Shown: one piece after another, positions 1,382 to 15,855 of the stretch | How the letters are laid out: each line of letters starts with the position of its first letter | Position numbering within the stretch: position 1 is the first letter of the stretch | NCBI GenBank assembly: GCA_003646305.1 | Contig: QNFJ01000001.1 | Span: 1 to 41,794 of the forward strand | Length of the DNA stretch: 41,794 nucleotides | Source: Gammaproteobacteria bacterium | GTDB taxonomy: Bacteria > Pseudomonadota > Gammaproteobacteria > Methylococcales > UBA2780 | Reading direction: 5' to 3' | Made by a program: the position numbers and the translations under genes | The notes under the pieces: generated by a model | Told to the model about the DNA's origin: nothing | The model's database searches: none | What the model saw: the letters and a program-made list of their open reading frames with translations, nothing else

Positions 1382-1389
1382 AAAATGTC

Positions 1390-1485: not shown

Positions 1486-2640
1486 GTGGATTTTTCTTTA
1501 ACCGAAGAGCAGTTGGCCATTCAGGAAAGCGCCAGACGTTTTGCTGAAGACAAGTTACTTCCCGAGTATCAGAATAATGACAAGAAGCATTGTTTTGATA
1601 AGGTGATGCTGAAAGAGATGGGTGAGCTGGGCTTGATCGGCAGCGAGCTTTCGGAGCGGTATGGTGGTTTAGGTCTAGGTTATGTGACAGCGGGTTTGAT
1701 CACCGAAGAGATTGCCCGAGCCGACTTTAATGTGGCCTATGTGCAGATCCTCGCTGGCCTGAACGGGGGGATTATTGAAAAGTTTGCGGCGCCTCATTTA
1801 GCGGAGGAGTGGATTCCAAAAATCATTAGCGGTGAGGCGCTTGTTGCGATCGCTTTGACGGAACCGAGTGCGGGATCTGATGCGGGAAATCTAAAACTGA
1901 AAGCCAAAAGGAAGGGGGATGTGTTCGTTCTTGATGGTGAGAAAACCTCGATTTCAGCTGCTGCTCAAGCGGATGTGGCGGTTGTTTTTGCTCGAACGGG
2001 TACACAGGAAGAAAAAGCGAGAGGGGTGAGTGCCTTTCTGGTGCCTTTAGATCATCCCAACATTACGCGTACTCATTTTGATGACCTTGGTGAGTCGATT
2101 GTTGGGCGCGGCTCAATCTTTTTCGATGGTGTCGAAGTACCGGCCGAGAATATGCTTGGAGAAGAGGGACTCGGTTTTATTCAGGTGATGCAGGGTTTTG
2201 ATTATAGCCGTGCCTTAATTGGTATTGAGTGTTTGGCGGCAGCGAAGAAATCGGTTGAAGAGGCCTGGGAACAGATTCGCCAACGTGAAGCATTTGGTAA
2301 AAAGATCTCAAAGTTTGAAGGTGCTAGCTTTCCTTTGGCCGAAGCGGAGACTTTTATCGAGGCGGCAAAACTGCTGTGTTACAAAACACTCTGGTTAAGA
2401 GATCAAGGTAAACCTCATACTGCCGAAGCGGCAATGTGCAAATGGTGGGCACCAAAAATTTCATTCGAGATTATTCATAATTGTTTGTTAGCGCATGGCC
2501 ACGGTGGCTACAGTAAAGAGTATCCGATCCAGCAGCGGCTACGTGATGTGCTTGGCTTGCAGATTGGTGATGGCACTTCACAAATCCAGAAGATTGTCAT
2601 TGCCAGAGAGAAAATTGGCCGTGATGGCGTTCCCTATTAA
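1486..2640 (+). CDS. acyl-CoA dehydrogenase family protein
   Basis: 384 aa with a GTG start downstream of TAGGAG. ACAD hallmarks are present (ALTEPSAGSDAG; C-terminal LGLQIGDGTSQIQKIVIAR). Asp sits where MCAD-type enzymes have the catalytic Glu (I-Y-E-G-T versus I-G-D-G-T). Confidence 0.9.
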   Translation: MDFSLTEEQLAIQESARRFAEDKLLPEYQNNDKKHCFDKVMLKEMGELGLIGSELSERYGGLGLGYVTAGLITEEIARADFNVAYVQILAGLNGGIIEKFAAPHLAEEWIPKIISGEALVAIALTEPSAGSDAGNLKLKAKRKGDVFVLDGEKTSISAAAQADVAVVFARTGTQEEKARGVSAFLVPLDHPNITRTHFDDLGESIVGRGSIFFDGVEVPAENMLGEEGLGFIQVMQGFDYSRALIGIECLAAAKKSVEEAWEQIRQREAFGKKISKFEGASFPLAEAETFIEAAKLLCYKTLWLRDQGKPHTAEAAMCKWWAPKISFEIIHNCLLAHGHGGYSKEYPIQQRLRDVLGLQIGDGTSQIQKIVIAREKIGRDGVPY

Positions 2641-2655
2641 AGAAGGTATCAGAGC

Positions 2656-3447
2656 ATGAGCGATAAAATTGTTATCTCATCGATAGAGGGAAATGTCGGT
2701 CTGATTATCATCAATCGAGCCGACAAATTTAATTGTCTTTCAATGGCCGTGCATCAGGCTTTGCAAGATGCACTACAGGCGCATGAAAGTAATTCGGAAG
2801 TGAGAGCGGTTTTACTTTGTTCGGAAGGTGATCACTTTTGTACCGGAGCAGATCTTGATGAGGTGCATGGCAAGATAGCGGCTAAAGACGATGCTGTGCT
2901 TAGAGAATTTATCGAACTGGGACATAAAACCTGTCGTGATTTTGAACAGACTAGTTTGCCAGTTGTTGGCGCTATTCAGGGGTTCTGTTTAGCGGGTGGG
3001 TTAGAGATATCACTCGGCTGTGATCTGTTGTTTGCTGCGGATGATGCGCTATTCGGTGATCAGCATGCCAACTATGGGTTGATACCTGGGTGGGGAGGAA
3101 GTCAAAGGCTTACTCGAATTATCGGTTTTCGTCGTGCGCTTGATCTGATGTTGTCAGGTCGCCGATTAAAAGCAAAAGAGGCTCAGGAATGGGGAATGGT
3201 TAATTATCTAGCACCTGCTGAATCGCTTAGGGAAGAGGCGCTTAAATATTGTCATCTGCTGGCATCAAAAAGTTCCGGCGGGCTTTCAATGATGAAAGCG
3301 CTCGCCTATCAAGGAAGTGATTTGAGCCTTGATGACGCTTTGCGACTGGAGGTCAACGAGGCGATTAAGGGGCTGCAAAGTGAAGATGTGGGAGAAGGGC
3401 TTGCTGCATTTGGAGAGCGCCGGGAACCTGTCTTCAGATCCCGATAA
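2656..3447 (+). CDS. crotonase-fold protein (enoyl-CoA hydratase/isomerase family) with atypical active site
   Basis: 263 aa. Crotonase motifs are present (FCTGADLDE, GFCLAGGLEISLGCD, GLIPGWGGSQRL). The first catalytic Glu is present (GGLEIS). The second aligns with His (FGDQHANYG versus FGQPEILLG of rat ECH). Confidence 0.85.
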   Translation: MSDKIVISSIEGNVGLIIINRADKFNCLSMAVHQALQDALQAHESNSEVRAVLLCSEGDHFCTGADLDEVHGKIAAKDDAVLREFIELGHKTCRDFEQTSLPVVGAIQGFCLAGGLEISLGCDLLFAADDALFGDQHANYGLIPGWGGSQRLTRIIGFRRALDLMLSGRRLKAKEAQEWGMVNYLAPAESLREEALKYCHLLASKSSGGLSMMKALAYQGSDLSLDDALRLEVNEAIKGLQSEDVGEGLAAFGERREPVFRSR

Positions 3448-3493
3448 ACAGATTTAAATAACGAATTAATATTTAGCCGAGAAGGGAAAAATA

Positions 3494-4276
3494 ATGAACT
3501 ACGAAGATATTACCTATGAAGTAAAAAATGGAGCAGCTTACGTCACCATTAACCGTCCAAAAGTATTTAATGCTTTTAGAGGGATTACCTGTGAAGAGCT
3601 AATTCATGCGCTGACTAAAGCCGCATGGGACAAAAGTGTTGGTGTGATTGTTCTGGCGGGAGCGGGTGATAAAGCATTCTGTACAGGTGGAGATCAAAGT
3701 GCACATGACGGTCAATATGACGGGCGAGGGATTGTTGGCCTGCCTGTTGAAGAGCTGCAAACAATTCTTCGTGATGCGCCTAAACCAGTTATTGCGATGG
3801 TACAAGGTTATGCCATTGGTGGGGGCAATGTGCTGGCGACGATCTGTGATATGACGATCGCCTCAGAAAGAGCCGTTTTTGGCCAGGTGGGCCCTAAAGT
3901 TGGCTCTGTTGATCCGGGTCATGGAACCGCTTATCTTGCCCGCGTGGTTGGGGAGAAAAAAGCACGTGAAATCTGGTACATGTGCCGTAAATATTCTGCA
4001 CAGGAAGCGCTTGAGATGGGGTTGGTTAACAAGGTTGTTCCACATGAAGAGCTTGCTGATGAAGTACAGAAGTGGTGTGATGAAATCATGGATAAAAGCC
4101 CAACAGCACTAGCGATTGCCAAGCGCTCTTTTAATGCCGATACAGAAAGTATCAGAGGAATTTCCGCGTTGGGTATGCAGACATTGCAGCTTTATTACAA
4201 TACAGAAGAGTCTCAGGAAGGGGTTAAGGCGTTTAATGAAAAGCGTAAACCTGATTTCCGCCAGCATGTTAAATAA
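3494..4276 (+). CDS. MenB/BadI-family crotonase, best read as a BadI-like 2-ketocyclohexanecarboxyl-CoA-type (beta-ketoacyl-CoA) hydrolase
   Basis: 260 aa. It carries FCTGGDQSAHDGQYDGRG (the short BadI-like version of the MenB GGDQ loop), GYAIGGGNVLATICD, GPKVGSVDPGHGTAYLARVVG and the C-terminal KAFNEKRKPDF. There are no menaquinone genes nearby, and it follows an ACAD and a crotonase. Confidence 0.72.
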   Translation: MNYEDITYEVKNGAAYVTINRPKVFNAFRGITCEELIHALTKAAWDKSVGVIVLAGAGDKAFCTGGDQSAHDGQYDGRGIVGLPVEELQTILRDAPKPVIAMVQGYAIGGGNVLATICDMTIASERAVFGQVGPKVGSVDPGHGTAYLARVVGEKKAREIWYMCRKYSAQEALEMGLVNKVVPHEELADEVQKWCDEIMDKSPTALAIAKRSFNADTESIRGISALGMQTLQLYYNTEESQEGVKAFNEKRKPDFRQHVK

Positions 4277-4296
4277 CGTTTAATCGAGATAAACCT

Positions 4297-4884
4297 ATGC
4301 CAGAATCAGGAATTTACGCCATCGATGGGGTTGTCCCAGTTATTCATCCGTCCGCCTTTGTTGACGAAAATGCCACGATTATTGGTGATGTCATTATCGG
4401 ACCAGACTGCTATATCGGTCCTAATGCTTGTCTGAGGGGTGATATGGCCACCATTGAAGTCGGAGCGGGTTCTAATATTCAGGATAACTGCACACTGCAT
4501 TGTATGCCCGGTTTGCCGACAATTATTGGAGAGTGGGGGCACCTTGGTCATGGTGCGGTGGTTCATAGTGCTCGGCTAGCAAAGAATGTCCTGGTTGGTA
4601 TGAATGCTGTTGTGATGGATCAGTCTTTTATCGGTGAGAATAGCGTTGTTGCTGCAATGGCGTTTGTAAAAGTCGGAATGCAAGTGCCAGAAAATACGCT
4701 GGTTGCAGGAACACCTGCACGTATCATTCGGCAGTTGACGGAACAGGAAATTGAAGGAAAACGAGACGGGACACGCTGTTATCACCAGTTAGTGAGCCGT
4801 TGTAAAGACTCTTTAAAGCGGGTCACGCCGCGGACTGAAAAAGAGGTGGGTCGCCCAGAGTTAAAAGTTAAACCGTTAGGATGA
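4297..4884 (+). CDS. gamma-carbonic-anhydrase-like hexapeptide-repeat protein (PaaY/CaiE/YrdA family)
   Basis: 195 aa. Left-handed beta-helix hexapeptide repeats are visible (IIGDVIIGPDCYIGPNACL...). The His triad spacing is retained (H68 in TLH, H85 and H90 in LGHGAVVH). Confidence 0.8.
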   Translation: MPESGIYAIDGVVPVIHPSAFVDENATIIGDVIIGPDCYIGPNACLRGDMATIEVGAGSNIQDNCTLHCMPGLPTIIGEWGHLGHGAVVHSARLAKNVLVGMNAVVMDQSFIGENSVVAAMAFVKVGMQVPENTLVAGTPARIIRQLTEQEIEGKRDGTRCYHQLVSRCKDSLKRVTPRTEKEVGRPELKVKPLG

Positions 4885-4942
4885 ATTTAAGTGAAGCGGT
4901 TGAAAGTATTGTTTTGTTTAAAATTTAGATTAAGAGGAAATC

Positions 4943-6139
4943 ATGGATTTAAATTACACTCCAGAAGAAAAAGCATTTCAATTAGAAGTGCGTAGCTTCT
5001 TAAAGGAAAGCTACCCGAAAGAGCTCCAGGATAAAGTTTCAAAAGGGATTGCGCTCAAAAAAGAGGATTATGTCCGTTGGCAGAAAATTCTTGCTAAGCA
5101 GGGTTGGGTTGCACCTGGCTGGCCGGAAAAATTTGGTGGCCCCGGCTGGAGTCCTGTTCAGAAATATATCTTTGATGAGGAGTGTGGTACTGCGAACTGC
5201 TTGAGGACGGTTGCTTTTGGTCTGGTGATGTTGGCGCCTGTCTTAATGGAATTTGGAACAGACGAGCAGCGTGAAAAGTATTTATCAGACATCTATAACA
5301 GTGATGTTTGGTGGTGCCAGGGTTATTCGGAACCCAACTCAGGTTCAGATTTGGCCTCTTTGCAGACGCGGGCAGAAAAGCAGGGTGACCACTATATCGT
5401 CAATGGCTCTAAAACATGGACAACCCATGGTCATTACGCCGATAAGATGTTTGCACTGGTTCGAACCAGCAAAGAAGATCGGAAACAAAAAGGGATCAGC
5501 TTCCTAATGCTCGATATGAAGGCGCCCGGTGTTACAGTCGACCCGATTATTACGGTTGACGGAATGCATGTGGTCAATCAGGTCTTTCTTGATAATGTAA
5601 AAGTACCGGTTGAAAACCTGGTCGGGGTAGAAGGGGAAGGCTGGACGATTGCAAAGTATTTGTTACAGCACGAACGAACTTATATTGCCCAGGTGCCACG
5701 TTCTAAAAAGCAGATTGAGCGCTTGAAGGTATTGGCAGGAAAAGAGCTGCACAATGGTAAATCGTTATTGGAAGATGATCGCTTTCGCGCAAAAATTGCT
5801 GAAATTGAGATTGAGTTATTGGCATTAGAAATGACCAGTTTGCGGATTCTATCCAAAATGTCAGCAGGGCAGCCTCCAGGGTCTGCCTCATCGCTACTTA
5901 AAGTCAAAGGAACAGAAGTACAGCAGGCGATTACGGCTCTACTAATGGAAGCGACAGGTTACTACGGTTTTCCTTACTTCAAAGAGGTCCTTAAAGAGGG
6001 CTGGAATGAAGAGGCAGTAGGGCCTGAAGAGGCAACCTTCCTCGCCCCACATTACTTCGACTGGCGTAAATCTTCTATTTACGGTGGCTCGAATGAAATT
6101 CAGAAAAATATTATGGCGAAAGCTGTATTGGGACTTTAA
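4943..6139 (+). CDS. acyl-CoA dehydrogenase family protein (putative catalytic subunit of a heteromeric pair)
   Basis: 398 aa with YSEPNSGSDLAS and the C-terminal SSIYGGSNEIQKNIMAKAVLGL. The MCAD-type Glu position is Gly, but an IVD/LCAD-type helix-G Glu is present (LLQHERT). Confidence 0.9.
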   Translation: MDLNYTPEEKAFQLEVRSFLKESYPKELQDKVSKGIALKKEDYVRWQKILAKQGWVAPGWPEKFGGPGWSPVQKYIFDEECGTANCLRTVAFGLVMLAPVLMEFGTDEQREKYLSDIYNSDVWWCQGYSEPNSGSDLASLQTRAEKQGDHYIVNGSKTWTTHGHYADKMFALVRTSKEDRKQKGISFLMLDMKAPGVTVDPIITVDGMHVVNQVFLDNVKVPVENLVGVEGEGWTIAKYLLQHERTYIAQVPRSKKQIERLKVLAGKELHNGKSLLEDDRFRAKIAEIEIELLALEMTSLRILSKMSAGQPPGSASSLLKVKGTEVQQAITALLMEATGYYGFPYFKEVLKEGWNEEAVGPEEATFLAPHYFDWRKSSIYGGSNEIQKNIMAKAVLGL

Positions 6140-6151
6140 GGGAGAACGGGA

Positions 6152-7282
6152 ATGAATCTTGAATTCACAGAAGAACAGGTTATGTTGCAGGATGCATTAA
6201 ACAAATACCTTGAAAAAGAATACAGCTTTGAGCAGCGGCAGAAGTTGAGCCGCAATGGCGTCGGTTATAGTGAAGAGAACTGGCAAAATTTTGCCGATAT
6301 GGGATTGTTGGGTGTTCCTTTTGATGAGCAATATGGCGGTTTTGGGTTTGGTGCAACAGGCCTGATCGTCGTCATGGAAGCGATTGGTAAAGGGCTGGTT
6401 GTTGAACCTTACCTTGCCTCTGTTGTTCTCGGTGGTCAGCTTATTCAACAAGCCGGTAGTGAGGTGCAAAAAGAGGCGTTGATTCCGCAATTGATTGCAG
6501 GTGAGTTGAAACTGGCTTTTGCTTATGTCGAGAGAAATTCTCGTTTTAACCTTGCGGATGTGGCCTTTAAAGCAGAAAAAGAGGGAGATGGTTTCCGTTT
6601 AAGCGGCAAAAAATCGGTGGTTTTCAATGCAGAGACAGCCGATAAAATTATCGTTTCAGCTCGAACAGCAGGAGATCAGACCAGTAAAGAAGGGATTTCT
6701 CTTTTTATTGTTGATAAAGGGGCAGTCGGTCTCTCTAGCAGAGACTATGAAACGGTTGATGGTTTGCGCGCATCTGAACTCGATTTTGATGGCGTGATTG
6801 TAGGGGCTGATGCATTAATTGGCTCATTAAATGAGGCCTATCCTGTTATTGAAAGTGTGATTGATTTTGCATCAGCCGCTATTTGTGCGGAGAGCGTTGG
6901 GGTGATCACGCAGCTTCGTGAGAAAACAGTTGAGTACCTGAAAACCAGAAAGCAGTTTGGTCAGCCTATTGGTGCTTTTCAGGTCCTACAGCACCGCACG
7001 GTTGATATGTTTATGGTAGAAGAGCAGATGCGTTCTTTAGCCTATTTAGCCGCAATTCGTGTGACTGATGGAACAGCGGAAGAGCGCCTCAAGAGTGTTT
7101 CTGCAGCCAAGGTCTATCTGGGTGATGCGCGCCCAATCGTCGGTGAACAATCTGCACAGTTACATGGTGGTATTGGGGTTACGGATGAACTGGATGTGGC
7201 CCATTACGTTAAGCGTTTAACGATGCTGAATGTGCTCTTTGGTGATCGCGATCACCATATGCAGCGCTTTTGCCAAAGCTGA
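6152..7282 (+). CDS. acyl-CoA dehydrogenase-like protein lacking a recognisable catalytic base (putative non-catalytic partner subunit)
   Basis: 376 aa, starting 12 nt after the preceding ACAD. The ACAD fold is recognisable throughout. The helix-G position reads VIDFASAAI (no Glu) and the C-terminal position reads LFGDRDHH (no Glu). Confidence 0.85.
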   Translation: MNLEFTEEQVMLQDALNKYLEKEYSFEQRQKLSRNGVGYSEENWQNFADMGLLGVPFDEQYGGFGFGATGLIVVMEAIGKGLVVEPYLASVVLGGQLIQQAGSEVQKEALIPQLIAGELKLAFAYVERNSRFNLADVAFKAEKEGDGFRLSGKKSVVFNAETADKIIVSARTAGDQTSKEGISLFIVDKGAVGLSSRDYETVDGLRASELDFDGVIVGADALIGSLNEAYPVIESVIDFASAAICAESVGVITQLREKTVEYLKTRKQFGQPIGAFQVLQHRTVDMFMVEEQMRSLAYLAAIRVTDGTAEERLKSVSAAKVYLGDARPIVGEQSAQLHGGIGVTDELDVAHYVKRLTMLNVLFGDRDHHMQRFCQS

Positions 7283-7294
7283 TCGGCTAAGCAG

Positions 7295-8317
7295 ATGTCT
7301 AAAACGGAAAAATTAAGTTATCCGTTTGCGGAAAAGCCATCATTTGGTGGTTTGCTCGAAGTTTCGGAAGGACTGTTCTGGCTGCGGGTACCTATTCCGT
7401 TTGCGCTTGACCACATCAATCTCTGGTTATTGCGTGATGGTGATGGTTGGACAATCATTGATACGGGCTTTTTTAGCGCAGAAGTCGCGACAATCTGGGA
7501 ACGGCTGCTAGAAGAATTTTGTGCAGGCGCACCGATTAAAAAAATTGTGGTGACGCACTTTCATCCCGACCACGTTGGTATGGCGAGCTGGTTGGTTGAG
7601 CGAACCGGAGCAGAGCTGTGGATGAGCGAGCGTGAATTCCTGACCGTTCATCGTGTATGTCAGCCCTATTCTGAACGTGAGATTACGGTGAGGGCTATCT
7701 TCTTCGAGCGTTTTGGGCTAAATGAAAAGCAGCTTGCCAGTGTCGTTAACGCGAGAAGTAGTGATGTTGAGGGGCTTCCGGAAGCCCCGGTCTCATACCG
7801 CCGATTGGTCGGTGGACAAACGTTATCGATAAATGGTGAGAACTGGAACTTGTTCAGTTTCGCAGGCCATAGTCCTGAGCATATTTGTCTGCACAATGCG
7901 GAGCGTAATTTGCTGATCTCGGGGGACCAGGTGTTGCCATCAATCTCTCCGAATATTAGTGTCACCTTTTACGAGCCACAGGCAAATCCGTTAGCGGAGT
8001 ATCTGAACAGTTTATCGAGGCTATCCGAGCTGAATGAAGAGACACTGGTGCTACCGTCACATGGTTCTGTATTCCAGGGTCTTCATCGGAGGATTGATCA
8101 GCTTGAGGCCGGACATCAAAAGCAGCTGGACAGGCTTTTGGAGTTTTGTAGGCAACCGCGTGATGGTAAAGAGGCGCTGGAAGCGATGTTTGGTAACCGC
8201 TTAAGTGCATTCAATTTGAGTCTGGGGGTTGGTGAGGCCCAGGCACACCTGAATTATTTAGTGGCCAAGCGTGAGCTAAAACAAAATGATGAGTTTATTC
8301 CACATTACCAGCGATAG
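7295..8317 (+). CDS. MBL-fold metallo-hydrolase
   Basis: 340 aa with the HxHxDH motif in VVTHFHPDHVG and downstream GHSPEH and PSHG. Confidence 0.85.
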   Translation: MSKTEKLSYPFAEKPSFGGLLEVSEGLFWLRVPIPFALDHINLWLLRDGDGWTIIDTGFFSAEVATIWERLLEEFCAGAPIKKIVVTHFHPDHVGMASWLVERTGAELWMSEREFLTVHRVCQPYSEREITVRAIFFERFGLNEKQLASVVNARSSDVEGLPEAPVSYRRLVGGQTLSINGENWNLFSFAGHSPEHICLHNAERNLLISGDQVLPSISPNISVTFYEPQANPLAEYLNSLSRLSELNEETLVLPSHGSVFQGLHRRIDQLEAGHQKQLDRLLEFCRQPRDGKEALEAMFGNRLSAFNLSLGVGEAQAHLNYLVAKRELKQNDEFIPHYQR

Positions 8318-8383
8318 GGCTCAGATTGTATTGTTTCCTAACAGGCCCCATACCCTAATTAGCTGCAATAGAGATAATTAATA

Positions 8384-8806
8384 ATGAACGATACAGTGAC
8401 ATACAAAAGCCTGATTCTAGGTGATGATTTTCTTGATCCACCGCCCTCTTTTGAGGTGACCAATGAGGTGGTTGATAAATATATTCGTGCAACAAACGAT
8501 GCAACCCAGGAGCTTGGAGAGCCTAATAGTAGAGGCCAGCGAATTGCACCTCCTATGCTGGCTGCGGTTTATGTGATTGACGCGCTGCGTACCAAGGTCG
8601 GGCCGCCGGGTGGCGTTCATGCCAAGCAGCAATTTAAATTTCATCGCCCCGCATGCGTGGGTGAAACACTTTATACCTCGGCAAAGATTGTCAAACTCTA
8701 TCAGAAAAAAGAGCGGAATTACGTTGAGATGACGACTGAAACGCTTAACCAGGATGACGACTTAGTGACGACAGGGCTGATCACTCGGATATGGGGGAAA
8801 GAATAA
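8384..8806 (+). CDS. hotdog-fold protein, MaoC N-terminal-half type (no hydratase-2 catalytic motif)
   Basis: 140 aa. Its size and pattern fit a hotdog fold. It has no [ST]GDxNPxH motif. Its stop TAA (8804-8806) overlaps the next ATG (TAATG). Confidence 0.72.
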   Translation: MNDTVTYKSLILGDDFLDPPPSFEVTNEVVDKYIRATNDATQELGEPNSRGQRIAPPMLAAVYVIDALRTKVGPPGGVHAKQQFKFHRPACVGETLYTSAKIVKLYQKKERNYVEMTTETLNQDDDLVTTGLITRIWGKE

Positions 8807-9237
8807 TGACGATTAGCGAGGAATTACAAAGCTATAAAAACCTTTCTGTAGGAGATCGCCTGCCTGAAATTAAGGTACTGGTTGACCAGAATATGGTCGA
8901 TGCTTACGCGGATGCATCGGGTGATACCAATCCATTACACATTGATCCTGAATTTGCCAAAACAACCTTCTTCGGGCGAACGATTGCGCACGGACTTTTA
9001 ACTCTGGCATTTGTATCGCAAGTGCTATCTGAATGGAACTGGCAGGGATGGGCTTATGGTGGCGAATTAAGCGTTGCTTTTTTAGGTCCTGTATACCCTG
9101 GAGATGAGGTTTCAGTCAGTGGAGAAATAGATTTAATTGAGCAGCGCGAAGAGGGTGTTTTTGCGCGCTGTAATTTGGCTTGTTATTGCGGGGAGAGAGC
9201 CGTTGTTAAGGGAACAGCAACCTGCAAAGTTGGTTAA
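8806..9237 (+). CDS. MaoC-family (R)-specific enoyl-CoA hydratase subunit
   Basis: It carries the canonical hydratase-2 motif YADASGDTNPLHIDPEFA. I prefer the ATG at 8806 (MTISEE..., TAATG coupling, GGGGAAAG upstream) over the track start at 8791. Confidence 0.85.
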   Translation: MTISEELQSYKNLSVGDRLPEIKVLVDQNMVDAYADASGDTNPLHIDPEFAKTTFFGRTIAHGLLTLAFVSQVLSEWNWQGWAYGGELSVAFLGPVYPGDEVSVSGEIDLIEQREEGVFARCNLACYCGERAVVKGTATCKVG

Positions 9238-9248
9238 GGAGAAAATAG

Positions 9249-10652
9249 ATGAGTTACCGTAAAGATGGGGCTTTAGAGAAAAAAGGCGACAGCTATTACC
9301 ACCAGATTGAGTGTGCTTCAGAAGATGAAATCATCAAGATTCAGGAAGAGAAATTACAGGCGCAGATGGCCTATTTGTCTAAAAACTCAAAGCTCTATCA
9401 ACAGAAGTTTGAGAAGGCAGGTATTCGTTTTGATGAGATCAAAACACTAAAGGATTTAGCCAAAGTCCCTTTTACCGTTAAACAGGATCTTAGGGACAGT
9501 CTTCAAGCTGCTCCACCATTTGGTCTTCACCAAACAGCACCGCTTTCTGAGATTGTACAGATGCAGGCCTCGTCAGGAACCACCGGTAGTCCCGCTTATG
9601 TCGCTCTGACTGAAAACGATATTGAGATGTGGAATGAACTGAGTGCGCGAGGATTTTATGCCTGCGGTGTTAACCCAGGCGACTTTGTTTTACATGGCTT
9701 TTCCATGAGTAAAGGCTTTGTTGGCGGTATCCCTTGTATGCAGGCGATTCAATATATGGGGGCAATTGATGTTCCTGTGGGCGCTGATGGTGGGGTTGAT
9801 CGGCTGTTACGTGCCTGTGCGGATATTAAACCGCGAGTTATTATTGGCGCGCCTAATTTTCTACTGCATATTGCCTCGATGGCGCCCGATATTCTTGGTA
9901 AACGTGCCGATGAACTGGGCGTAGAAAGATTAGTTGTTGGTGGTGAACCAGGTGGTGGTATTCCTGCGATTCGCGAATCACTGGAAGAGAAATGGGGCGC
10001 GAAAGTCTGTGAAATGATGGGAGGGACTGATCTCGGCGTCATCTATTGGGCAGAATGTGATGAGCAAGATGGCATGCATATGATCTGTCAGGATCACATT
10101 ATTGTCGAATTGATTGACCCGGAAACAGAGCAGGTGATTCCTTTTGAGAAAGGCGTTACTGGCGAGCTGATTTATACCGCGATTGGCCGCGAGGCTTCAC
10201 CCGTTGTTCGTTTTAAAAGTGGCGATCACATTGTGGTGACCGATACGGCGTGTAGTTGTGGCCGGACAGGCCCTAAAATACGCTGCTTTGGGCGAACAGA
10301 TGATATGTTGATTGTCCGCGGCATCAATGTCTTTCCATCGGCAATCCAGGATCTTATTTTACAGCTACAACCTGACACCAACGGCGTGATGCGTGTCTGG
10401 GCCGATTTTGAAGGCCATACCACGCAAGCAAATCTGAAAGTATTGGTTGAGCGCGGCATTGATCGGTCGAAAGAGCAGGATCAGGAGCTTATCAGCCATG
10501 TGGAGCAAACCATTCGCAACGCCTTATCGTTCAAGGCGAAAGTGATTGTTGTCGATGCAAATAGTTTTGAAAAACCGGGTGTTGCAAAAGTAGCGCTAAC
10601 GCTTCGTGAGCAACCCGGCTTTCTCACTCTTGATGATGAGGGTGCTCAGTAA
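9249..10652 (+). CDS. PaaK-like adenylate-forming enzyme (phenylacetate-CoA ligase / coenzyme F390 synthetase family)
   Basis: 467 aa with the P-loop-like QASSGTTGSPAYV. The overall pattern is PaaK-family rather than FadD-type. Confidence 0.8.
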   Translation: MSYRKDGALEKKGDSYYHQIECASEDEIIKIQEEKLQAQMAYLSKNSKLYQQKFEKAGIRFDEIKTLKDLAKVPFTVKQDLRDSLQAAPPFGLHQTAPLSEIVQMQASSGTTGSPAYVALTENDIEMWNELSARGFYACGVNPGDFVLHGFSMSKGFVGGIPCMQAIQYMGAIDVPVGADGGVDRLLRACADIKPRVIIGAPNFLLHIASMAPDILGKRADELGVERLVVGGEPGGGIPAIRESLEEKWGAKVCEMMGGTDLGVIYWAECDEQDGMHMICQDHIIVELIDPETEQVIPFEKGVTGELIYTAIGREASPVVRFKSGDHIVVTDTACSCGRTGPKIRCFGRTDDMLIVRGINVFPSAIQDLILQLQPDTNGVMRVWADFEGHTTQANLKVLVERGIDRSKEQDQELISHVEQTIRNALSFKAKVIVVDANSFEKPGVAKVALTLREQPGFLTLDDEGAQ

Positions 10653-12262
10653 TGTCAATTATAAAGTCGACTGTACATAATCAGTCTGAAGAGTTTATCG
10701 CTAATCGAAATCGTTATCTTGAACGGATCGAAGAACTACAGGAACACCGGCAGCGCGCCCATTTAGGTGGGCCAGAGAAAGCACGGAAACGTCATATAGA
10801 ACACCGCGAACAGATATTGCCGCGTGATCGTATTCGGTTGCTGATTGACCCGGGTTCTCCTTTTTTTGAACTGGGTGAACTTGCGGGTGATGGTCTGCCC
10901 GAAGGGACTCAGGTCGGTGCAAGTGTTATTACCGGCGTCGGCCTCATTAACAGCCGTCAATGTATGATTATTGCCAATGATGCCACCGTAAAAGGCGGTA
11001 CTTATTTTCCAATGACCTGTAAAAAACATGTTCGGGCGCAGACGTTTGCGATACAGCATCGGCTACCCTGCATCACTTTAGTTCAAAGTGGTGGTGCATT
11101 TTTGCCAGAGCAGGAAGGTATTTTTCCTGATGAGGGTATGTTCGGAAGCATCTTTGTTAACCAGATCGAAATGTCCGCTCAGGGTATTCCACAGATTTCC
11201 GTGGTAATGGGCTCATCAACAGCAGGTGGTGCCTATATACCTGCGTTGTGTGATGAGATTGTCATCATTAAAGGGAAAGGTTTTATGTATCTGGGTGGCC
11301 CCCAACTGGTTGAAGCGGCGACAGGTGAGAAGGTCGAACATGAAGCGCTAGGCGGTGCAGAAATGCATTGTCGGGATAGTGGTGTTACCGATCATCTAGC
11401 AGAAGATGACGCACATGGTTTGAGTATGGTACGCGATATTGTGCGAAATCTGGGTAACCTACCCGAACAACGCTGGGATGTGGCTAAATCGGTTCCACCA
11501 CTATATCCGGTGGAAGAGATTTACGGCATTGTTAATCAGGATACGAAAATTCCGACCGCTAACCGACAAATCTTGGCTCGCTTAATTGATGGTAGTGACT
11601 TTGATGAATTCAAGGCCAATTATGGCGATACGCTGATGTGTGGCTTTGCCAAAATACATGGTTTTGAAATCGGTATTTTAGCTAATGATGGCGTGATGTT
11701 TAGTGAGTCTGCTAAAAAAGGGGCGCACTTTATTAATCTTTGCTGCCAGCGCGATATTCCACTGTTATTTGTGGCCGATGTTCCCGGTTTTATGGTGGGT
11801 GAACATGCCGAGCGGGGTGGTATCGCAAAAGATGGAGCAAAGTTCATCACCGCCATGTGTTCTGCAAAAGTACCTAAATATACCTTAATCACGGGAGGCT
11901 CTTACGGTGCCGGTTATTTAGCCATGTGTGGTCGCCCGTTTAAACCGAATGCCATGTTAGCCTGGCCATCGGGTCGTGCTGGCATTATGGGGCCGGAGCA
12001 GGTTGCCAATACGCTTGCAACGGTACGCGAAGATATCCTCAAACGAGAAGGAAAAAGTTGGACGGAAGAAGAGCGGGAAGAATTTAAAGCGCCACATCGG
12101 AAACGATTTGAGGATTCTGAAGGTGCTTATAACTTTGCCTCCAAGTTGTGGTATGACGCGGTGATTGATCCAACAGAAACACGCGAAGTGCTGGCACTTT
12201 TACTTGATCTGGCAGGACGTTCGCCCAAAGTGGAAACTAAATTTGGTGTATTCAGACAATGA
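10652..12262 (+). CDS. acyl-CoA carboxylase carboxyltransferase (beta) subunit, methylcrotonyl-/geranyl-CoA carboxylase type
   Basis: 536 aa. The layout is typical of MccB/AtuC (RIEELQEHRQRAHLGGPEKARKRH..., ANDATVKGGTYFPMT, GSSTAGGAYIPA, GSYGAGYLAMCG). Its start overlaps the previous stop (TAATG). Confidence 0.9.
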   Translation: MSIIKSTVHNQSEEFIANRNRYLERIEELQEHRQRAHLGGPEKARKRHIEHREQILPRDRIRLLIDPGSPFFELGELAGDGLPEGTQVGASVITGVGLINSRQCMIIANDATVKGGTYFPMTCKKHVRAQTFAIQHRLPCITLVQSGGAFLPEQEGIFPDEGMFGSIFVNQIEMSAQGIPQISVVMGSSTAGGAYIPALCDEIVIIKGKGFMYLGGPQLVEAATGEKVEHEALGGAEMHCRDSGVTDHLAEDDAHGLSMVRDIVRNLGNLPEQRWDVAKSVPPLYPVEEIYGIVNQDTKIPTANRQILARLIDGSDFDEFKANYGDTLMCGFAKIHGFEIGILANDGVMFSESAKKGAHFINLCCQRDIPLLFVADVPGFMVGEHAERGGIAKDGAKFITAMCSAKVPKYTLITGGSYGAGYLAMCGRPFKPNAMLAWPSGRAGIMGPEQVANTLATVREDILKREGKSWTEEEREEFKAPHRKRFEDSEGAYNFASKLWYDAVIDPTETREVLALLLDLAGRSPKVETKFGVFRQ

Positions 12263-14247
12263 TTAAACGAATTCTTATCGCAAACCGCGGCGAAATCGCC
12301 TGTCGAATTACACGAACCTGCCGTAAATTGGGGATTGATGCCGTTGGTGTCTATTCAACGGCAGATAGCCAGGGCCGCCATGTTAGAGAGATTGGTCATT
12401 CTGTTGCTATCGGTGGTGCCAGTGCAGCAGATAGTTACCTCAATATAGATAAAGTCATTGCAGCAGCTAAAGCGACTAACTGTGATGCCATTCATCCAGG
12501 TTATGGTTTTTTATCAGAAAACCCCGACTTTGCCGAGGCGGTTGAAGGTGCTGGGCTTATTTTTATTGGTCCCAGAGCGGATAGCTTACGCCGTTTTGGT
12601 GATAAGTCTGCCGCTAAAAAAGAGGCTATTAATGCCGATGTGCCGGTTATCCCGGGCAGTGATGGAAAGCTTTCCGATCCAGTGGAGATTGCCAAGATTG
12701 TTAAAAGCATGGAGCTTCCAGTGATGCTGAAAGCCGCCGCGGGTGGTGGTGGGAAGGGGATGCGGATTATCAGTGATCTGCCAAGTCTGGAATCCGATAT
12801 CAGCAGTGCCATGAGCGAAGCATTGCGTTCTTTTTCCGATGAGGCGCTACTGATTGAAAAATGTATCTACAATGCGCGTCATGTAGAGGTGCAGATTGCA
12901 GGTGATGGTGAAGGCAATGTCGTTCACCTTTTTGAACGAGAATGCTCTTTACAGCGTCGCCACCAAAAAGTTGTTGAAGAGGCGCCTGCTATTTTCCTCC
13001 GGCTAGAGCAGCGTGAAAAATTGTTGGAAGCTGCTTGCCGACTTGGTAAGCAGATTAATTTTAGAGGACTGGGCACTGTTGAGTTTCTTGTGCTGGGTGA
13101 CGATTACTATTTTCTGGAAGTAAACCCGCGGCTTCAGGTGGAGCACCCCGTTACTGAGAGCATAACTGGTCTGGATCTGGTCGAACTACAGATTCGCATT
13201 GCACAGGGAAGCGGTTTTGGCTTTCGCCAAGAAGAGGTCAGTGCTTCAGGTCACGCCATTGAGGTGCGCCTTTATGCCGAATCACCAGAGCAGAACTTTA
13301 TGCCAGCGACGGGAACAATTGAGCTTGTGAAATTCCCAGACGAGCACCTGCGCGTTGAATCCGGGGTCGATAGCGGTGACGAGATAAGTGCCTATTACGA
13401 CCCAATGGTTGCCAAACTGATTGCTACTGGAGAGAATCGAAATCAGGCGCTGGAACGTCTTCAAAAAGGAGTTGATGAAACCATTCTTTTTGGGGTTGAT
13501 AATAACCGTAATTTTCTTCAGCAACTGCTTCGCCATAACGAGGTTGTCGAGGACAAGATTGACACCGGCACGCTGGATCGCTGGTTAGCCGATTATGCCG
13601 ATGGAAAGGGTTCTCTTGAAGCAGAAAAACAGGCAGCTATTGCGGCTATTCTATGGCTAAACCAGCACCGAAAGAGTGGCTCATTAAATCCATGGGAAGG
13701 CGCCGATATCTTTAGTTATTGGGCATTAAGATCACCGAATGACAAACCTATTTATACCTTTAGCCTGATCGAAAATGAAGATGAGTGGAAGATCGCTTTT
13801 CTGAATATCGATGAGCAAGGGCTTGTTGCGCTGATGGTAAATGACCAGCGGATTGAATTGCGGCTGAAAGCTCAGGGCGATGACAGCTGGATGGCTGAAT
13901 TTCCGGAGGCACATATCCCTGTGACGGCTATTGCCACAACTGAACAGCTCTATATCCACGCACTTTCACAACAAAGTAGCTACCGAGTGGAGCAGGTTGT
14001 CCGCGATAAACAAGGGGAAGCGGCCGGTGCGAATAGTGTCATGGCACCGATGATGGGTGAGATTATCAAGGTGATTATTAAGGAAGGGGATAGCGTAGAA
14101 GAGGGTGATCTTCTGATTGTAATGGAGTCAATGAAAATGCAATTACAAATTGAAGCCGTTAAAGCGGGTACGGTAACTAACGTTCTTTGCAAGGCAGGCG
14201 ACAATGTTGCACGCGGTGAAGTTGTGGTAGAAGTCGATGCAGAATAA
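12259..14247 (+). CDS. acyl-CoA carboxylase biotin carboxylase + BCCP (alpha) subunit
   Basis: 662 aa. It has an ATP-grasp biotin carboxylase domain (ILIANRGEIACRI, KAAAGGGGKGMR, EVNPRLQVEHPVTE). The C-terminal biotinyl domain has the motif VMESMKMQ, with the Lys codon at 14134-14136. The start overlaps the beta subunit stop (ATGA). Confidence 0.92.
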   Translation: MIKRILIANRGEIACRITRTCRKLGIDAVGVYSTADSQGRHVREIGHSVAIGGASAADSYLNIDKVIAAAKATNCDAIHPGYGFLSENPDFAEAVEGAGLIFIGPRADSLRRFGDKSAAKKEAINADVPVIPGSDGKLSDPVEIAKIVKSMELPVMLKAAAGGGGKGMRIISDLPSLESDISSAMSEALRSFSDEALLIEKCIYNARHVEVQIAGDGEGNVVHLFERECSLQRRHQKVVEEAPAIFLRLEQREKLLEAACRLGKQINFRGLGTVEFLVLGDDYYFLEVNPRLQVEHPVTESITGLDLVELQIRIAQGSGFGFRQEEVSASGHAIEVRLYAESPEQNFMPATGTIELVKFPDEHLRVESGVDSGDEISAYYDPMVAKLIATGENRNQALERLQKGVDETILFGVDNNRNFLQQLLRHNEVVEDKIDTGTLDRWLADYADGKGSLEAEKQAAIAAILWLNQHRKSGSLNPWEGADIFSYWALRSPNDKPIYTFSLIENEDEWKIAFLNIDEQGLVALMVNDQRIELRLKAQGDDSWMAEFPEAHIPVTAIATTEQLYIHALSQQSSYRVEQVVRDKQGEAAGANSVMAPMMGEIIKVIIKEGDSVEEGDLLIVMESMKMQLQIEAVKAGTVTNVLCKAGDNVARGEVVVEVDAE

Positions 14248-15418
14248 ACGCTCAATTCGAGGCAAAGTTGCGATTGTTGGTGTTGGGCAATCACCTTCAG
14301 GACGGGTGCCCGGCAGAAGCCCGTTAGACTTGACTGCCGATGCAACGCTTAAAGCACTGGCCGACGCCGGTATGGATAAAAGTGAAATTGACGGGGTCTT
14401 GACGGGTAATGCCTTCGCCTCATCCTTCCACCGTTTTAGTGTTGCATTGAGTGAATACCTGAACATTCAACCTTCATTCTCTAATACCTTGCAGGTCTCG
14501 GGAGCCACTGCGGGAGCCGCCGTTAATATTGCCGCAGCAGCGATTAACGGTGGGCTTGCAGATACGGTGCTGGTCGCCTGTGGTGATAGCCTGTTAACTG
14601 GGATGACACCAGATATGGCGATTAGAGCGATGACCGAAAGCCGTGATCAACAATATGAAATGCCTTTTGGAATTCCTGTGGCCAATACGTTTGCGATGAC
14701 GGCTCAGCGGCATATGAAAGAGTACGGCACCACCTCTGAACAGTTAGCACAAGTGGCCGTTACCTTTCGTGAGCATGCTCGACGTACACCGGGTGCGCAA
14801 AAGACGGACTCGATTACGGTTGAGGATGTGTTAAATTCCAAAATGGTGACGACGCCGTATCACAAACTGGACTGTTCTCTTATTTCTGATGGTGCTGTTG
14901 CGCTAATTTTGACCTCGGCGGAAAAGGCGCATGAATATACTCAGGAGCCAATTTATATTCTGGGTGGTGGCGAGTATTACAGCCATGAGCATATTTTTTT
15001 GATGCCAGAATTGACCCAGACGGGTGCGGTTCAGGCAGCTAAAAAGGCCTATGAGATGGCGGGTGTGACGGCAAAAGATATTGATGTTGCGGGAATTTAT
15101 GATTGTTTTACCGGAACGGTTTTGATGATGCTCGAAGATCTCGGGTTTTGTAAAAAAGGCGAGTCAGGCCCATTCGTTGAGGCGGGAGAAATCACCTACG
15201 GAGGGGCTATTCCGACTAATACTCACGGTGGAATGCTCTCTTATGCGCATCCGGGTATTCCGGCGGCATGGTTTCATTTTGCGGAGGTGGTTAGACAGCT
15301 TCGCAATAGCTGCGGTGAAAGACAGGTTGCCAGTGCAGAGCTTGGACTAGTCCATACCTTAGGTGCTGGTTTTTCAACCCAGGCAACGACGATATTAGGA
15401 ACGGGGAGCACACTGTGA
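14237..15418 (+). CDS. thiolase-fold (SCP-x/Ltp-type) protein apparently lacking the nucleophilic Cys; candidate aldolase subunit
   Basis: 393 aa with an SCP-x-type thiolase pattern (VAIVGVGQS..., NTHGGMLSYAHPG). Gly occupies the nucleophile position (GATAGAAVNIAAAAINGG versus CATGSTALFMARQLIQGG). Confidence 0.85.
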   Translation: MQNKRSIRGKVAIVGVGQSPSGRVPGRSPLDLTADATLKALADAGMDKSEIDGVLTGNAFASSFHRFSVALSEYLNIQPSFSNTLQVSGATAGAAVNIAAAAINGGLADTVLVACGDSLLTGMTPDMAIRAMTESRDQQYEMPFGIPVANTFAMTAQRHMKEYGTTSEQLAQVAVTFREHARRTPGAQKTDSITVEDVLNSKMVTTPYHKLDCSLISDGAVALILTSAEKAHEYTQEPIYILGGGEYYSHEHIFLMPELTQTGAVQAAKKAYEMAGVTAKDIDVAGIYDCFTGTVLMMLEDLGFCKKGESGPFVEAGEITYGGAIPTNTHGGMLSYAHPGIPAAWFHFAEVVRQLRNSCGERQVASAELGLVHTLGAGFSTQATTILGTGSTL

Positions 15419-15855
15419 GTGAGCAAAAGGTTGGAGTAGAAGAGGCGCTAAAAAAACCATTGCCCACGCCTGATGGTGATAGCCAGCCAATGTGGGATGG
15501 TTTTAAAGAAGGTAAATTATTGTTGCAGCATTGCGGTGATTGCGGACATGTTCAATATTACCAACAAGGTATTTGTCGCAACTGCCAATCGCCTAACCTG
15601 CAGCATCAGAAAGCAAGTGGGCGTGGAGTGATTCATTCATATAGTGTCGTTCATCGTGCGCCCGGCCCTGCGTTTAGAGATGATGTTCCTTATGCAGTGT
15701 TATTAGTCGAACTGGAAGAGGGGCCCAGAATGATTAGCCGTTTGGTTGGGCAGGATTTTGACTCACTGGATTTTGATCTGCCGGTCAGGCTGGAAACCAT
15801 TAAGGTGAGTGATGAACTTTTTCTCCCTTATTTCGCATTGAACGAGTGCAATTAA
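15415..15855 (+). CDS. DUF35 OB-fold / zinc-ribbon protein (thiolase-fold partner)
   Basis: 146 aa with a GTG start overlapping the previous stop (GTGA). It has a C-x2-C-x10-C-x2-C ribbon (CGDCGHVQYYQQGICRNC) followed by an OB-fold-like segment. Confidence 0.85.
   Translation: MSEQKVGVEEALKKPLPTPDGDSQPMWDGFKEGKLLLQHCGDCGHVQYYQQGICRNCQSPNLQHQKASGRGVIHSYSVVHRAPGPAFRDDVPYAVLLVELEEGPRMISRLVGQDFDSLDFDLPVRLETIKVSDELFLPYFALNECN

Follow-up and report, generated by a model that had tools for sequence, protein, structure and literature searches.

A predicted two-subunit MaoC-type enoyl-CoA hydratase in a putative alicyclic-acid operon of the Cycloclasticus lineage

Introduction

The stretch of DNA analysed here (the window, 41,794 nt) comprises positions 1 to 41,794 of the gammaproteobacterial contig QNFJ01000001.1 (assembly GCA_003646305.1), read on the forward strand. 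Near its start lie two overlapping open reading frames, ORF1 and ORF2, that encode hot-dog proteins of the MaoC type (Table 1). Judged by sequence, fold, synteny and natural fusions, they most likely encode a heterodimeric, two-subunit (R)-specific enoyl-CoA hydratase. What is known of heteromeric MaoC hydratases with a catalytically inert partner comes mainly from mycobacterial mycolate synthesis and from steroid side-chain removal. Our favoured reading, which we hold to be rather probable, is that a heterodimer in the style of HadAB and ChsH carries out the middle step of a three-step module in an alicyclic-acid operon, the dimer, the order of reactions and the substrate all being predictions.

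Results

Overlapping genes for a predicted catalytic and a predicted non-catalytic hot-dog subunit

The TAA stop codon of ORF1 (8804-8806) and the ATG start codon of ORF2 (8806-8808) have one base in common (TAATG), and a Shine-Dalgarno-like purine run, GGGGGAAAG, is positioned a few bases 5' of the ORF2 ATG. An in-frame ATG at 8791 could serve as an alternative start of ORF2, but the AATAATG junction is kept in eight homologous loci. The 1-nt overlap described in an earlier reading of this DNA (the original prediction) is real at these coordinates, and the translational coupling that it proposed is borne out by overlapping junctions that recur in related loci.

ORF2 scores 85 bits against the MaoC model PF01575 (cutoff 27; 3.5e-24) and contains the hydratase-2 motif YADASGDTNPLHIDPEFA, which includes SGDTNPLH. 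The catalytic Asp and His are present, as is the HG that opens the central helix; residues D40, N42, P43, H45, H62 and G63 are invariant in 39 ORF2 homologues. Compared with the strict hydratase-2 pattern, the motif deviates at one non-catalytic position, where Ala takes the place of L/V/I/G.

The hydratase-2 motif is absent from ORF1, which is matched at 4.5e-14 by PF13452, a model of the 'N-terminal half' hot dog. Profile-profile alignment of the ORF1 and ORF2 families spans the full length of both (98.3 %, E 1.4e-14). In this alignment, ORF1 has a five-residue deletion exactly across NPLHI, which removes the catalytic His, and a Pro-Pro where the central helix of ORF2 begins with His-Gly. 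At the motif site, DxNPxY or DDNPLH survives in more distant ORF1 relatives. The deletion, the replacement of HG by PP and the motif remnants together indicate that ORF1 is, by its sequence, a degenerate paralogue of the hydratase subunit. The best-conserved stretches of ORF1 are PPGG[VI]HAKQ (residues 74-82) and APP[MT]xAA[VI]Y (residues 55-63), which might line the pocket, bind CoA or retain some catalysis. Paralogy, the residues lost from ORF1 and those invariant in ORF2 agree with the earlier description of the pair as a hot-dog protein without the hydratase-2 motif beside one that carries it, that is, a hydratase split into a non-catalytic and a catalytic subunit.

Predicted folds and nearest relatives

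Both subunits are modelled by AlphaFold2 as single hot dogs. The central helix has 12 residues in ORF1 (pLDDT 86.9), followed by a less confident loop, and 21 residues in ORF2 (pLDDT 96.2). Foldseek matches the ORF2 model to PhaJ (1iq6, E 1.7e-11) and to the HadB chains of HadAB, HadBC and HadBD (TM 0.81-0.83, rmsd 1.7-2.0 Å); superposition is best on HadB, and ChsH1 comes next (TM 0.76). For the ORF1 model, Foldseek retrieves NodN-like 4ffu, HadA chains (TM about 0.72) and PhaJ1, and ChsH2 chains rank lower (TM 0.68, E about 7e-5).

Sequence comparison gives the same ranking. A hidden Markov model (HMM) of 35 ORF1 relatives matches HadA at 2e-11, HadC at 2e-10 and Rv0504c/HadD at 1e-9, as well as the N-halves of double-hot-dog dehydratases, and reaches ChsH1/ChsH2 (4w78/4wnb) only at E 0.39-0.44. 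In a phmmer search, ORF2 matches HadB at 9e-11, and ChsH1 is not among its matches at E <= 0.01. The NCBIfam scores stay below equivalog level (30 bits against a cutoff of 180 for HadA, 50 against 203 for HadB). As in HadAB, a hot-dog paralogue that lacks the Asp and His is encoded beside the catalytic subunit. By these sequence comparisons and models, the pair is HadA/HadB-like by descent and ChsH-like by architecture only. Membership of the ChsH1-ChsH2 family, to which the original prediction likened the pair, is not supported: the profile E-value is about 0.4, and the nearest relatives in both sequence and fold are HadA and HadB.

Conservation of the gene pair

Related loci were collected from a genome scan (34) and from exact-protein look-ups (six). 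The scan profile was a 13-sequence ORF1 alignment; the 35-sequence version is too diverse for this purpose. Searched exhaustively with HMMER, stand-alone proteins of the ORF1 type amount to about 250 cluster representatives.

An ORF2 homologue directly follows the ORF1 homologue in 37 of the 38 loci with a detected ORF1 homologue, across several phyla, and the stop and start codons overlap (TAATG, ATGA or 8 nt) in roughly 33 of them. Such immediate succession with mostly overlapping codons indicates that the arrangement is not due to chance. There is no overlap in three distant loci, from metagenome-assembled genomes (MAGs) labelled Nitrospinae, Nitrospinota and Tectomicrobia; the gaps are about 100 nt in two of these, and the junction of L039 is unreadable. 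Cycloclasticus and related MAGs, one of them a sponge symbiont, have ORF1 homologues at 64-88 % identity. Besides Alphaproteobacteria and Gammaproteobacteria, the module is seen in MAGs that carry the labels Thermodesulfobacteriota, Nitrospinota and Tectomicrobia, and a Neobacillus genome has part of it.

Natural fusions combine the same parts. P0167 and P0101 are double hot dogs in which an ORF1-like (MaoN) and an ORF2-like (MaoC) domain follow each other in the order of the genes. P0197 fuses DUF35 to MaoN, with DUF35 N-terminal, the reverse of ChsH2, and P0092 fuses a TIM barrel resembling HMG-CoA lyase to a MaoN domain. By the Rosetta-stone argument, these fusions point to a MaoN-MaoC complex and to its link with DUF35 and a C-C lyase step.

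A possible sign of an independent role for ORF1 is its patch PGG[VI]HAKQ, invariant among close relatives (H79, K81 and Q82), which could reflect an activity of its own. ORF1 would then be a thioesterase or dehydratase beside a homodimeric ORF2 hydratase. Some distant relatives (P0081) keep a DxNPLH motif, and homodimeric MaoC hydratases such as PhaJ and Shy are common. Strict adjacency with overlapping codons across phyla, the MaoN-MaoC fusions, and the deleted catalytic His and lost HG in ORF1 argue the other way, and its nearest solved relatives, HadA, HadC and HadD, are obligate non-catalytic partners. We consider an independent ORF1 very improbable.

In alpha- and gammaproteobacterial relatives, the order of genes is MaoN, MaoC, thiolase-fold protein and DUF35, usually with an enoyl-CoA hydratase (ECH), a flavoprotein of the nitronate monooxygenase (NMO) family and a two-domain acyl-CoA dehydrogenase (ACAD); the NMO-family gene follows DUF35 and ECH in L001, L003 and L035. 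The proposal that ACAD pair, MaoC pair and thiolase-fold/DUF35 pair travel together withstands the synteny comparison: the three are contiguous in these relatives, in the order fadE28-fadE29-chsH2-chsH1-ltp2.

Four alphaproteobacterial loci (L001, L003, L030 and L035; Hyphomicrobiales, Mesorhizobium and Alphaproteobacteria) have a 712-714-aa ADP-forming (NDP-forming) acyl-CoA synthetase gene before the module, which ends in one 751-aa protein in which the small ACAD unit precedes the large one. The presence of TctABC transporter genes and a GntR regulator gene in the vicinity suggests that the substrate in those loci is a di- or tricarboxylate. In the Cycloclasticus MAG locus L011 (11088-12755), the aldolase is 89 % identical and starts about 330 nt after the MaoC pair, with no ligase or carboxylase genes; this arrangement either is ancestral or arose by deletion.

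The operon around the pair

ORF1 and ORF2 belong to one run of 14 ORFs, all on the plus strand, that spans 1486-15855 with spacings of -11 to +66 nt (Table 1). These small or negative intergenic distances indicate that the run is a single operon. A promoter and terminator scan of positions 1-20000 gave counts at or below the expectation from shuffled sequence and is uninformative on the operon boundaries.

Table 1. Genes of the operon and companion genes in the window
Feature	Position	Strand	Evidence
Cyclohexanecarboxyl-CoA dehydrogenase, AliB equivalog, first gene of the operon	1486..2640	+	TIGR03207, 583 bits (cutoff 575.35)
Crotonase-family enoyl-CoA hydratase	2656..3447	+	PF00378, 1.4e-49
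2-Ketocyclohexanecarboxyl-CoA hydrolase, BadI equivalog	3494..4276	+	TIGR03210, 475.7 bits (cutoff 467.6)
PaaY/CaiE-like hexapeptide-repeat protein	4297..4884	+	TIGR02287, 3.4e-75, under cutoff
ACAD large subunit, PimC-like	4943..6139	+	TIGR03204, 2.6e-136, under cutoff
ACAD small subunit, PimD-like	6152..7282	+	TIGR03203, 9.7e-124, under cutoff
Metallo-beta-lactamase (MBL)-fold metallo-hydrolase, possibly a thioesterase	7295..8317	+	PF00753, PF21221
ORF1 (MaoN), predicted non-catalytic MaoC-type hot-dog subunit, 140 aa	8384..8806	+	PF13452, 4.5e-14
ORF2, predicted catalytic MaoC (R)-specific enoyl-CoA hydratase subunit, 143 aa	8806..9237	+	PF01575, 3.5e-24
PaaK-like (phenylacetate-CoA-ligase family) acyl-CoA ligase	9249..10652	+	NF041878, 1e-75; TIGR02155, 5.6e-70; both under cutoffs
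Carboxyltransferase (beta) subunit, MCC/GCC-type acyl-CoA carboxylase, 536 aa	10652..12262	+	PDB matches
Biotin carboxylase and biotin carboxyl carrier protein (alpha) subunit	12259..14247	+	Pfam BC_N, CPSase_L_D2, BC_C, Biotin_lipoyl
Cys-less SCP2-thiolase-fold protein, predicted retro-aldolase (Sal/SLP type)	14237..15418	+	VSGATAG, YDCF
Free-standing DUF35, Cys4 zinc ribbon and OB fold, predicted aldolase partner	15415..15855	+	PF12172, PF01796
NMO/FabK-like flavoprotein, module companion in alphaproteobacteria	20104..21078	+	PF03060, 1.9e-55
Crotonase-family hydratase, conserved module companion	21108..21869	+	PF00378, 1.8e-66

From its gene content, and in particular the AliB and BadI equivalogs, the operon reads as one for alicyclic acyl-CoA catabolism in the Cycloclasticus lineage. 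The BadI equivalog is 83-97 % conserved in Cycloclasticus loci, and Cycloclasticus bloomed in one deep-sea methylcycloalkane enrichment. No steroid-ring catabolic genes are found among the scanned ORFs of at least 120 aa in the window. Because AliB and BadI equivalogs share the operon with a PaaK-like ligase and a carboxylase of the methylcrotonyl-CoA/geranyl-CoA carboxylase (MCC/GCC) type, the substrates are most likely alicyclic (naphthenic-type) carboxylic acids rather than steroids.

A Cys-less thiolase-fold protein next to DUF35

The thiolase-fold protein has VSGATAG at the site of the nucleophilic Cys, YDCF at residues 288-291, and a His at the position equivalent to Tyr344 (N+10 in NTHGG...). 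In Comamonas testosteroni Sal (CtSal), Tyr302 and Cys304 of YDCY form the catalytic dyad of a Sal-type retro-aldolase, in contrast to Ltp2, which has YDHF and Tyr344 (PMC12329534, a study of 2025). The window protein thus has the Tyr/Cys dyad in YDC[YF] and no nucleophilic Cys, as Sal and SLP do, and lacks the combination of Tyr294 of YDHF with Tyr344 that marks Ltp2. Its PDB matches are 4u4e (1e-84), CtSal (9myr, 3e-63) and TcLtp2 (6ok1, 1e-51), in falling order. In the related loci, all thiolase-fold proteins beside a complete MaoN/MaoC pair lack the nucleophilic Cys and have YD[CSA]F, in which the Tyr is kept. L036, the sole locus without a MaoC homologue, has a gene for a canonical thiolase (IQCASG...HDCF...GHP) upstream of MaoN.

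The DUF35 gene overlaps the stop codon of the thiolase-fold gene by 4 nt, and its product carries the cysteines CGDC...CRNC. In related loci, it is always directly downstream of the thiolase-fold gene. By its motifs, the thiolase-fold protein is a predicted aldolase, and DUF35 is its predicted partner. The original prediction was right about a Cys-less thiolase-fold protein beside a free-standing DUF35, and membership of the Ltp2 family is not supported: the motif is the YDCF of Sal and TbSLP, not YDHF with Tyr344.

A predicted two-subunit acyl-CoA dehydrogenase

The best NCBIfam models of the two ACADs are PimC and PimD, the subunits (large and small, respectively) of pimeloyl-CoA dehydrogenase, and the scores remain below equivalog level (454.6 against 623.85 bits and 413.3 against 652.7 bits, respectively). 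The large subunit keeps the SEPNSGSD loop and has a Gly at the position of the catalytic base (IYGGS). The small subunit has a degenerate TEPxxGSD motif (VERNSRFN) and an Asp at the base position (FGDRD), as in the AliB-like ACAD of the operon. Such complementary losses are as expected of an obligate heteromer, and adjacent genes with complementary losses are typical of heteromeric ACADs of the PimCD and ChsE type. In alphaproteobacterial loci, the two subunits are fused into one 751-aa protein. The ACAD pair noted earlier is present; it is PimC/PimD-like and separated from the hydratase genes by the intervening MBL-fold gene, which the original prediction had overlooked.

For the two ACADs, the PimC and PimD models outscore the other NCBIfam models by a wide margin, and BadI, whose product is pimeloyl-CoA, is encoded in the same operon. 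The ACAD might therefore be a true pimeloyl-CoA dehydrogenase in dicarboxylate beta-oxidation after BadI, with the MaoC pair hydrating 2,3-dehydropimeloyl-CoA as an (R)-specific counterpart of PimF. We find this unlikely, as the scores are well under the equivalog cutoffs, the operon has neither a 3-hydroxyacyl-CoA dehydrogenase nor a Cys-bearing thiolase, its only thiolase-fold protein lacking the nucleophile, and the same module occurs in genomes and loci without a nearby BadI.

Component list and gene order would also fit a true orthologue of the igr system (ChsE1-E2/ChsH1-H2/Ltp2), acting in steroid or bile-acid side-chain removal; the DUF35 domains are named after ChsH2 in Pfam, and the fold likeness to ChsH1 and ChsH2 is appreciable (TM 0.68-0.76). 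The insignificant sequence matches to ChsH1 and ChsH2 (E about 0.4) speak against it, as do the YDCF aldolase, the PimCD-like ACADs, on which the IpdE2 model reaches only 1e-29, the lack of steroid-ring catabolic genes among the scanned ORFs of the 41.8-kb window, and the host lineage Cycloclasticus, a hydrocarbon degrader. We give an igr orthologue hardly any weight. Of the igr-like module in the original prediction, the chemical logic, the gene order and the co-travelling components stand, but not the membership of the ChsH and Ltp2 families; steroid genes are missing from these ORFs, and AliB and BadI are present.

Genes for a ligase and an acyl-CoA carboxylase

The ligase, carboxyltransferase and biotin carboxylase genes occupy precisely the interval from the hydratase genes to the aldolase gene, and stop and start codons overlap. 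The carboxyltransferase and the fusion of biotin carboxylase (BC) with biotin carboxyl carrier protein (BCCP) make up, by sequence, a predicted complete acyl-CoA carboxylase. A ligase and a biotin carboxylase had been noted here before, and both are present, but the carboxyltransferase subunit had been overlooked.

The gamma-carboxylating MCC/GCC lineage and the propionyl-CoA carboxylase (PCC) lineage are both defined in PMC4673880. The carboxyltransferase matches AccD1 (4q0g, 3e-184), PaMCC-beta (3u9r, 5e-178) and GCC-beta (5ikl, 5e-126); MCC-type matches lie at 1e-176 to 1e-184, compared with 1e-74 or weaker for the PCC type. The best PDB match of the alpha subunit is MCC-alpha (3u9s, 7e-144). 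With a beta subunit nearer to MCC/GCC than to PCC and an alpha subunit with BC and BCCP, the enzyme falls into the MCC/GCC lineage. As regards the MCC-Phe191/GCC-Gly162 selectivity residue, no Phe occurs at 191 in either 3u9r_B numbering; the one difference nearby is IFF in MCC against IFV in the window protein. Among related loci, only those of the Cycloclasticus/Piscirickettsiaceae lineage carry the inserted MBL, ligase and carboxylase genes.

A carboxylase of the gamma-carboxylating lineage, with its genes and that of the ligase so placed and coupled, raises the possibility of branch removal resembling Liu/Atu as a sub-case for the Cycloclasticus version of the module. The carboxylase would act on the gamma carbon of the 3-substituted 2-enoyl-CoA formed by the ACAD, the MaoC pair would add water to the resulting glutaconyl-type CoA ester and so form a tertiary (R)-alcohol, the thiolase-fold/DUF35 pair would replace HMG-CoA lyase and release acetyl-CoA and a 3-oxo acid, and the PaaK-like ligase would re-activate the acid. 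The operon has no gene for HMG-CoA lyase, a lyase of that kind is naturally fused to MaoN (P0092), and an R-stereospecific leucine route with an AccD1-type MCC is described for Mycobacterium tuberculosis (PMC6689899, PMC4347857). Yet the hydratase/aldolase module is kept without the carboxylase in most lineages and in Cycloclasticus L011, and the crotonase genes of the operon could encode the glutaconyl-type hydratase instead. On balance, this sub-case is tentative and rather doubtful.

Other genes in the window

Between DUF35 and the NMO/ECH genes, 15962-20049 (+) encodes an HlyD-type adaptor and an AcrB-type resistance-nodulation-division (RND) pump, genes that are absent from this position in the Cycloclasticus loci examined (L005-L013). 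They may be a lineage-specific efflux insertion into the catabolic cluster. Downstream of the ECH gene, a 158-aa ORF at 21897-22373 (+) has no Pfam or NCBIfam match and is, by hhalign against the ORF2 family (90.6 %, E 1.3e-6), a third MaoC-like hot dog with a degenerate GGLHEPLFID, in which Leu and Phe occupy the Asp and His positions. Its homologue (75 %) lies directly after DUF35 in L013.

A second CoA-catabolic operon occupies 25317-35331 on the minus strand. From 5' to 3', it encodes a DUF35 (34933-35331), a second thiolase-fold protein without the Cys (33777-35045; MVGGSSF at the site of the nucleophile, motif YDAF), a pair of family-III CoA-transferases, an FMN reductase, an ACAD, a CoA-transferase-like protein, one lone MaoC (27651-28112, SGDFVQLH) and a further two ACADs. 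Elsewhere (Cycloclasticus L016 and L018), its thiolase and DUF35 genes are convergent to a paralogous ACAD-ACAD-MaoN-MaoC set.

Further downstream are a sigma-54 activator with a GAF domain (37205-39130, +) and an ORF cut by the window edge (40644-41794, +) that matches Hydantoinase_B/oxoprolinase at 3e-41. The region 37205-41794 looks like an acetone/ketone-carboxylase locus, which could be relevant to short-chain alkane metabolism in Cycloclasticus, or in the event that ketones are released by the aldolases. A complete flavoprotein of the Old Yellow Enzyme (OYE) family is encoded at 35471-36613 (+), and a 184-aa OYE fragment at 39724-40278 (+), overlapped by a 120-aa ORF at 40217-40579 (+), may represent a frameshifted second OYE gene. 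At the other end, a gene of the MmgE/PrpD family (1-1325, -; 441 aa readable) reaches the window edge and is divergent from the operon. The same family adjoins the module in Cycloclasticus L005 and L006, there with a TetR gene, and is near the module in Mesorhizobium L003.

Discussion

The proposed three-step module

In the favoured reading, the two-subunit PimCD-like ACAD would oxidise an acyl-CoA to the 2-enoyl-CoA, and the ORF1/ORF2 hydratase would add water to give the 3-hydroxyacyl-CoA. ORF2 would supply the catalytic pair Asp40/His45, and ORF1, by analogy with HadA and ChsH2, would shape and enlarge the acyl pocket. The Cys-less thiolase-fold protein with its Tyr/Cys dyad, held by DUF35, would then perform a retro-aldol cleavage to acetyl-CoA and a carbonyl compound. 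Such a route would suit beta-substituted or ring-attached acyl chains that are refractory to ordinary beta-oxidation.

Several observations weigh against this reading, in addition to the invariant patch of ORF1. CtShy, a steroid MaoC hydratase, is reported to work without an inert partner (PMC11321319). The ACADs being closest to the subunits of pimeloyl-CoA dehydrogenase, the module could act on a plain dicarboxyl-CoA. The assignment of the thiolase-fold protein as an aldolase and not a thiolase comes from motifs. The module is found without carboxylase and ligase in L011 and in all non-Cycloclasticus loci, and the carboxylase may serve another step or substrate. Finally, the operon contains no 3-hydroxyacyl-CoA dehydrogenase of the BadH type, and no short-chain dehydrogenase/reductase was found among the window ORFs scanned; lacking a BadH-type gene, the operon encodes an incomplete Bad/Ali route.

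A speculative extension assigns the carboxylase to the same path, as part of a hitherto undescribed aerobic route in which carboxylation-assisted retro-aldol cleavage would take the acetyl side chain off cycloalkyl-acetic (naphthenic) acids. The PaaK-like ligase would activate cyclohexylacetate, the saturated analogue of phenylacetate, and the PimCD-like ACAD would form cyclohexylideneacetyl-CoA, a 3,3-dialkylacryloyl-CoA like methylcrotonyl-CoA. Carboxylation at ring carbon 2 by the MCC/GCC-type enzyme would give 2-carboxycyclohexylideneacetyl-CoA, which the ORF1/ORF2 heterodimer would hydrate to the tertiary alcohol. The thiolase-fold/DUF35 aldolase would release acetyl-CoA and 2-oxocyclohexanecarboxylate, and CoA activation followed by ring opening by BadI would lead to pimeloyl-CoA. 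In anaerobic naphthalene degradation, ring-II cleavage by ThnO, a hydratase and the ThnQS lyase proceeds via 2-carboxycyclohexylideneacetyl-CoA and its tertiary-alcohol hydrate (PMC12016498). Cyclohexylacetyl-CoA would be the most attractive substrate here, because its carboxylated and hydrated derivatives are these thn intermediates and the CoA ester of the cleavage product is the substrate of BadI. We consider the complete route improbable as it stands. If true, it would explain all genes of the operon except the MBL-fold and PaaY-like ones, and odd- and even-chain alkylcyclohexane routes would merge at BadI.

Significance

In the literature searched, we found no description of the cassette, of this Cycloclasticus cluster or of genes for cyclohexylacetate catabolism. 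The split hydratase adds a member to the HadAB/ChsH kind, and its architecture is unsurprising to specialists. What distinguishes the cassette is the combination of a free-standing DUF35, a Sal-type aldolase and a PimCD-like ACAD, to which Cycloclasticus adds an MCC-type carboxylase, a PaaK-like ligase and AliB/BadI. Its wide spread suggests that the combination of dehydrogenase, split hydratase and aldolase/DUF35 serves as a general means of degrading acyl chains that would block beta-oxidation. Cycloclasticus is a key degrader of hydrocarbons in the sea, and there the cassette is tied to cyclohexanecarboxylate genes and a gamma-carboxylating carboxylase, which points to a testable pathway for naphthenic and alicyclic acids. 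If the reading is true, the genes would serve as markers of cycloalkane and naphthenic-acid degradation in the ocean, and the aldolase and hydratase would be a new non-steroid pair for biocatalysis.

Comparison with known systems

The closest likeness of the pair is to HadAB, HadBC and HadBD of M. tuberculosis. Both have single hot-dog subunits (about 140-160 aa) whose genes are adjacent and coupled, the non-catalytic subunit preceding the one with the hydratase-2 motif, and the Had subunits are the best matches of ORF1 and ORF2 in both sequence profile and structure. The Had enzymes act on meromycolate precursors bound to acyl carrier protein in biosynthesis by the type II fatty acid synthase (FAS-II). 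In contrast, the pair described here lies in a catabolic operon for CoA thioesters with ACADs, a ligase and an aldolase. A biosynthetic role like that of HadAB was considered and rejected on account of these catabolic CoA neighbours.

The igr system of M. tuberculosis (ChsE1-ChsE2, ChsH1-ChsH2 and Ltp2) and its counterpart in C. testosteroni TA441 (PMC12502768) have the same components, in the order ACAD, ACAD, non-catalytic hot dog, catalytic hot dog, aldolase, and the same chemical logic: dehydrogenate, hydrate, retro-aldol. However, DUF35 is fused C-terminally to the non-catalytic subunit in ChsH2, whereas it is separate here and follows the aldolase. The aldolase with YDCF, the PimCD-like ACADs and the insignificant similarity to ChsH1 and ChsH2 set the window module apart as well, as do its AliB/BadI context, which is not that of steroid catabolism, and the additional MBL, ligase and carboxylase genes within it.

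Shy and Sal, the hydratase and aldolase for bile-acid side chains in C. testosteroni (PMC11321319, PMC12329534), resemble the window proteins in the Tyr/Cys dyad (YDCY in Sal, YDCF here) without a nucleophilic Cys, and in the dependence of the Sal aldolase on a DUF35 domain, the gene for which adjoins that of the aldolase here. Shy requires no inert partner and carries DUF35 itself, whereas the window encodes a split hydratase and a separate DUF35; the substrates here are also unlikely to be steroids.

With the Bad/Ali/Pim routes of Rhodopseudomonas palustris and Aromatoleum sp. CIB (PMC9795900), the operon shares AliB and BadI equivalogs and a PimC/PimD-like ACAD. It differs in having no BadH-type dehydrogenase, no PimF and no Cys-bearing PimB thiolase, and in having instead the MaoC pair, the aldolase with DUF35, the MCC-type carboxylase and the PaaK-like ligase.

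Finally, the Liu/Atu routes for leucine and acyclic terpenes and the ring-II cleavage of naphthalene combine a gamma-carboxylating carboxylase, hydration to a tertiary alcohol and a lyase, a sequence that the operon could reproduce. Those routes employ other enzymes for the last two steps, namely hydratases of the crotonase type with a lyase of the HMG-CoA lyase type in Liu/Atu, and an AtuA-like lyase in the thn pathway, whereas the candidates here would be the MaoC heterodimer and the thiolase-fold aldolase.

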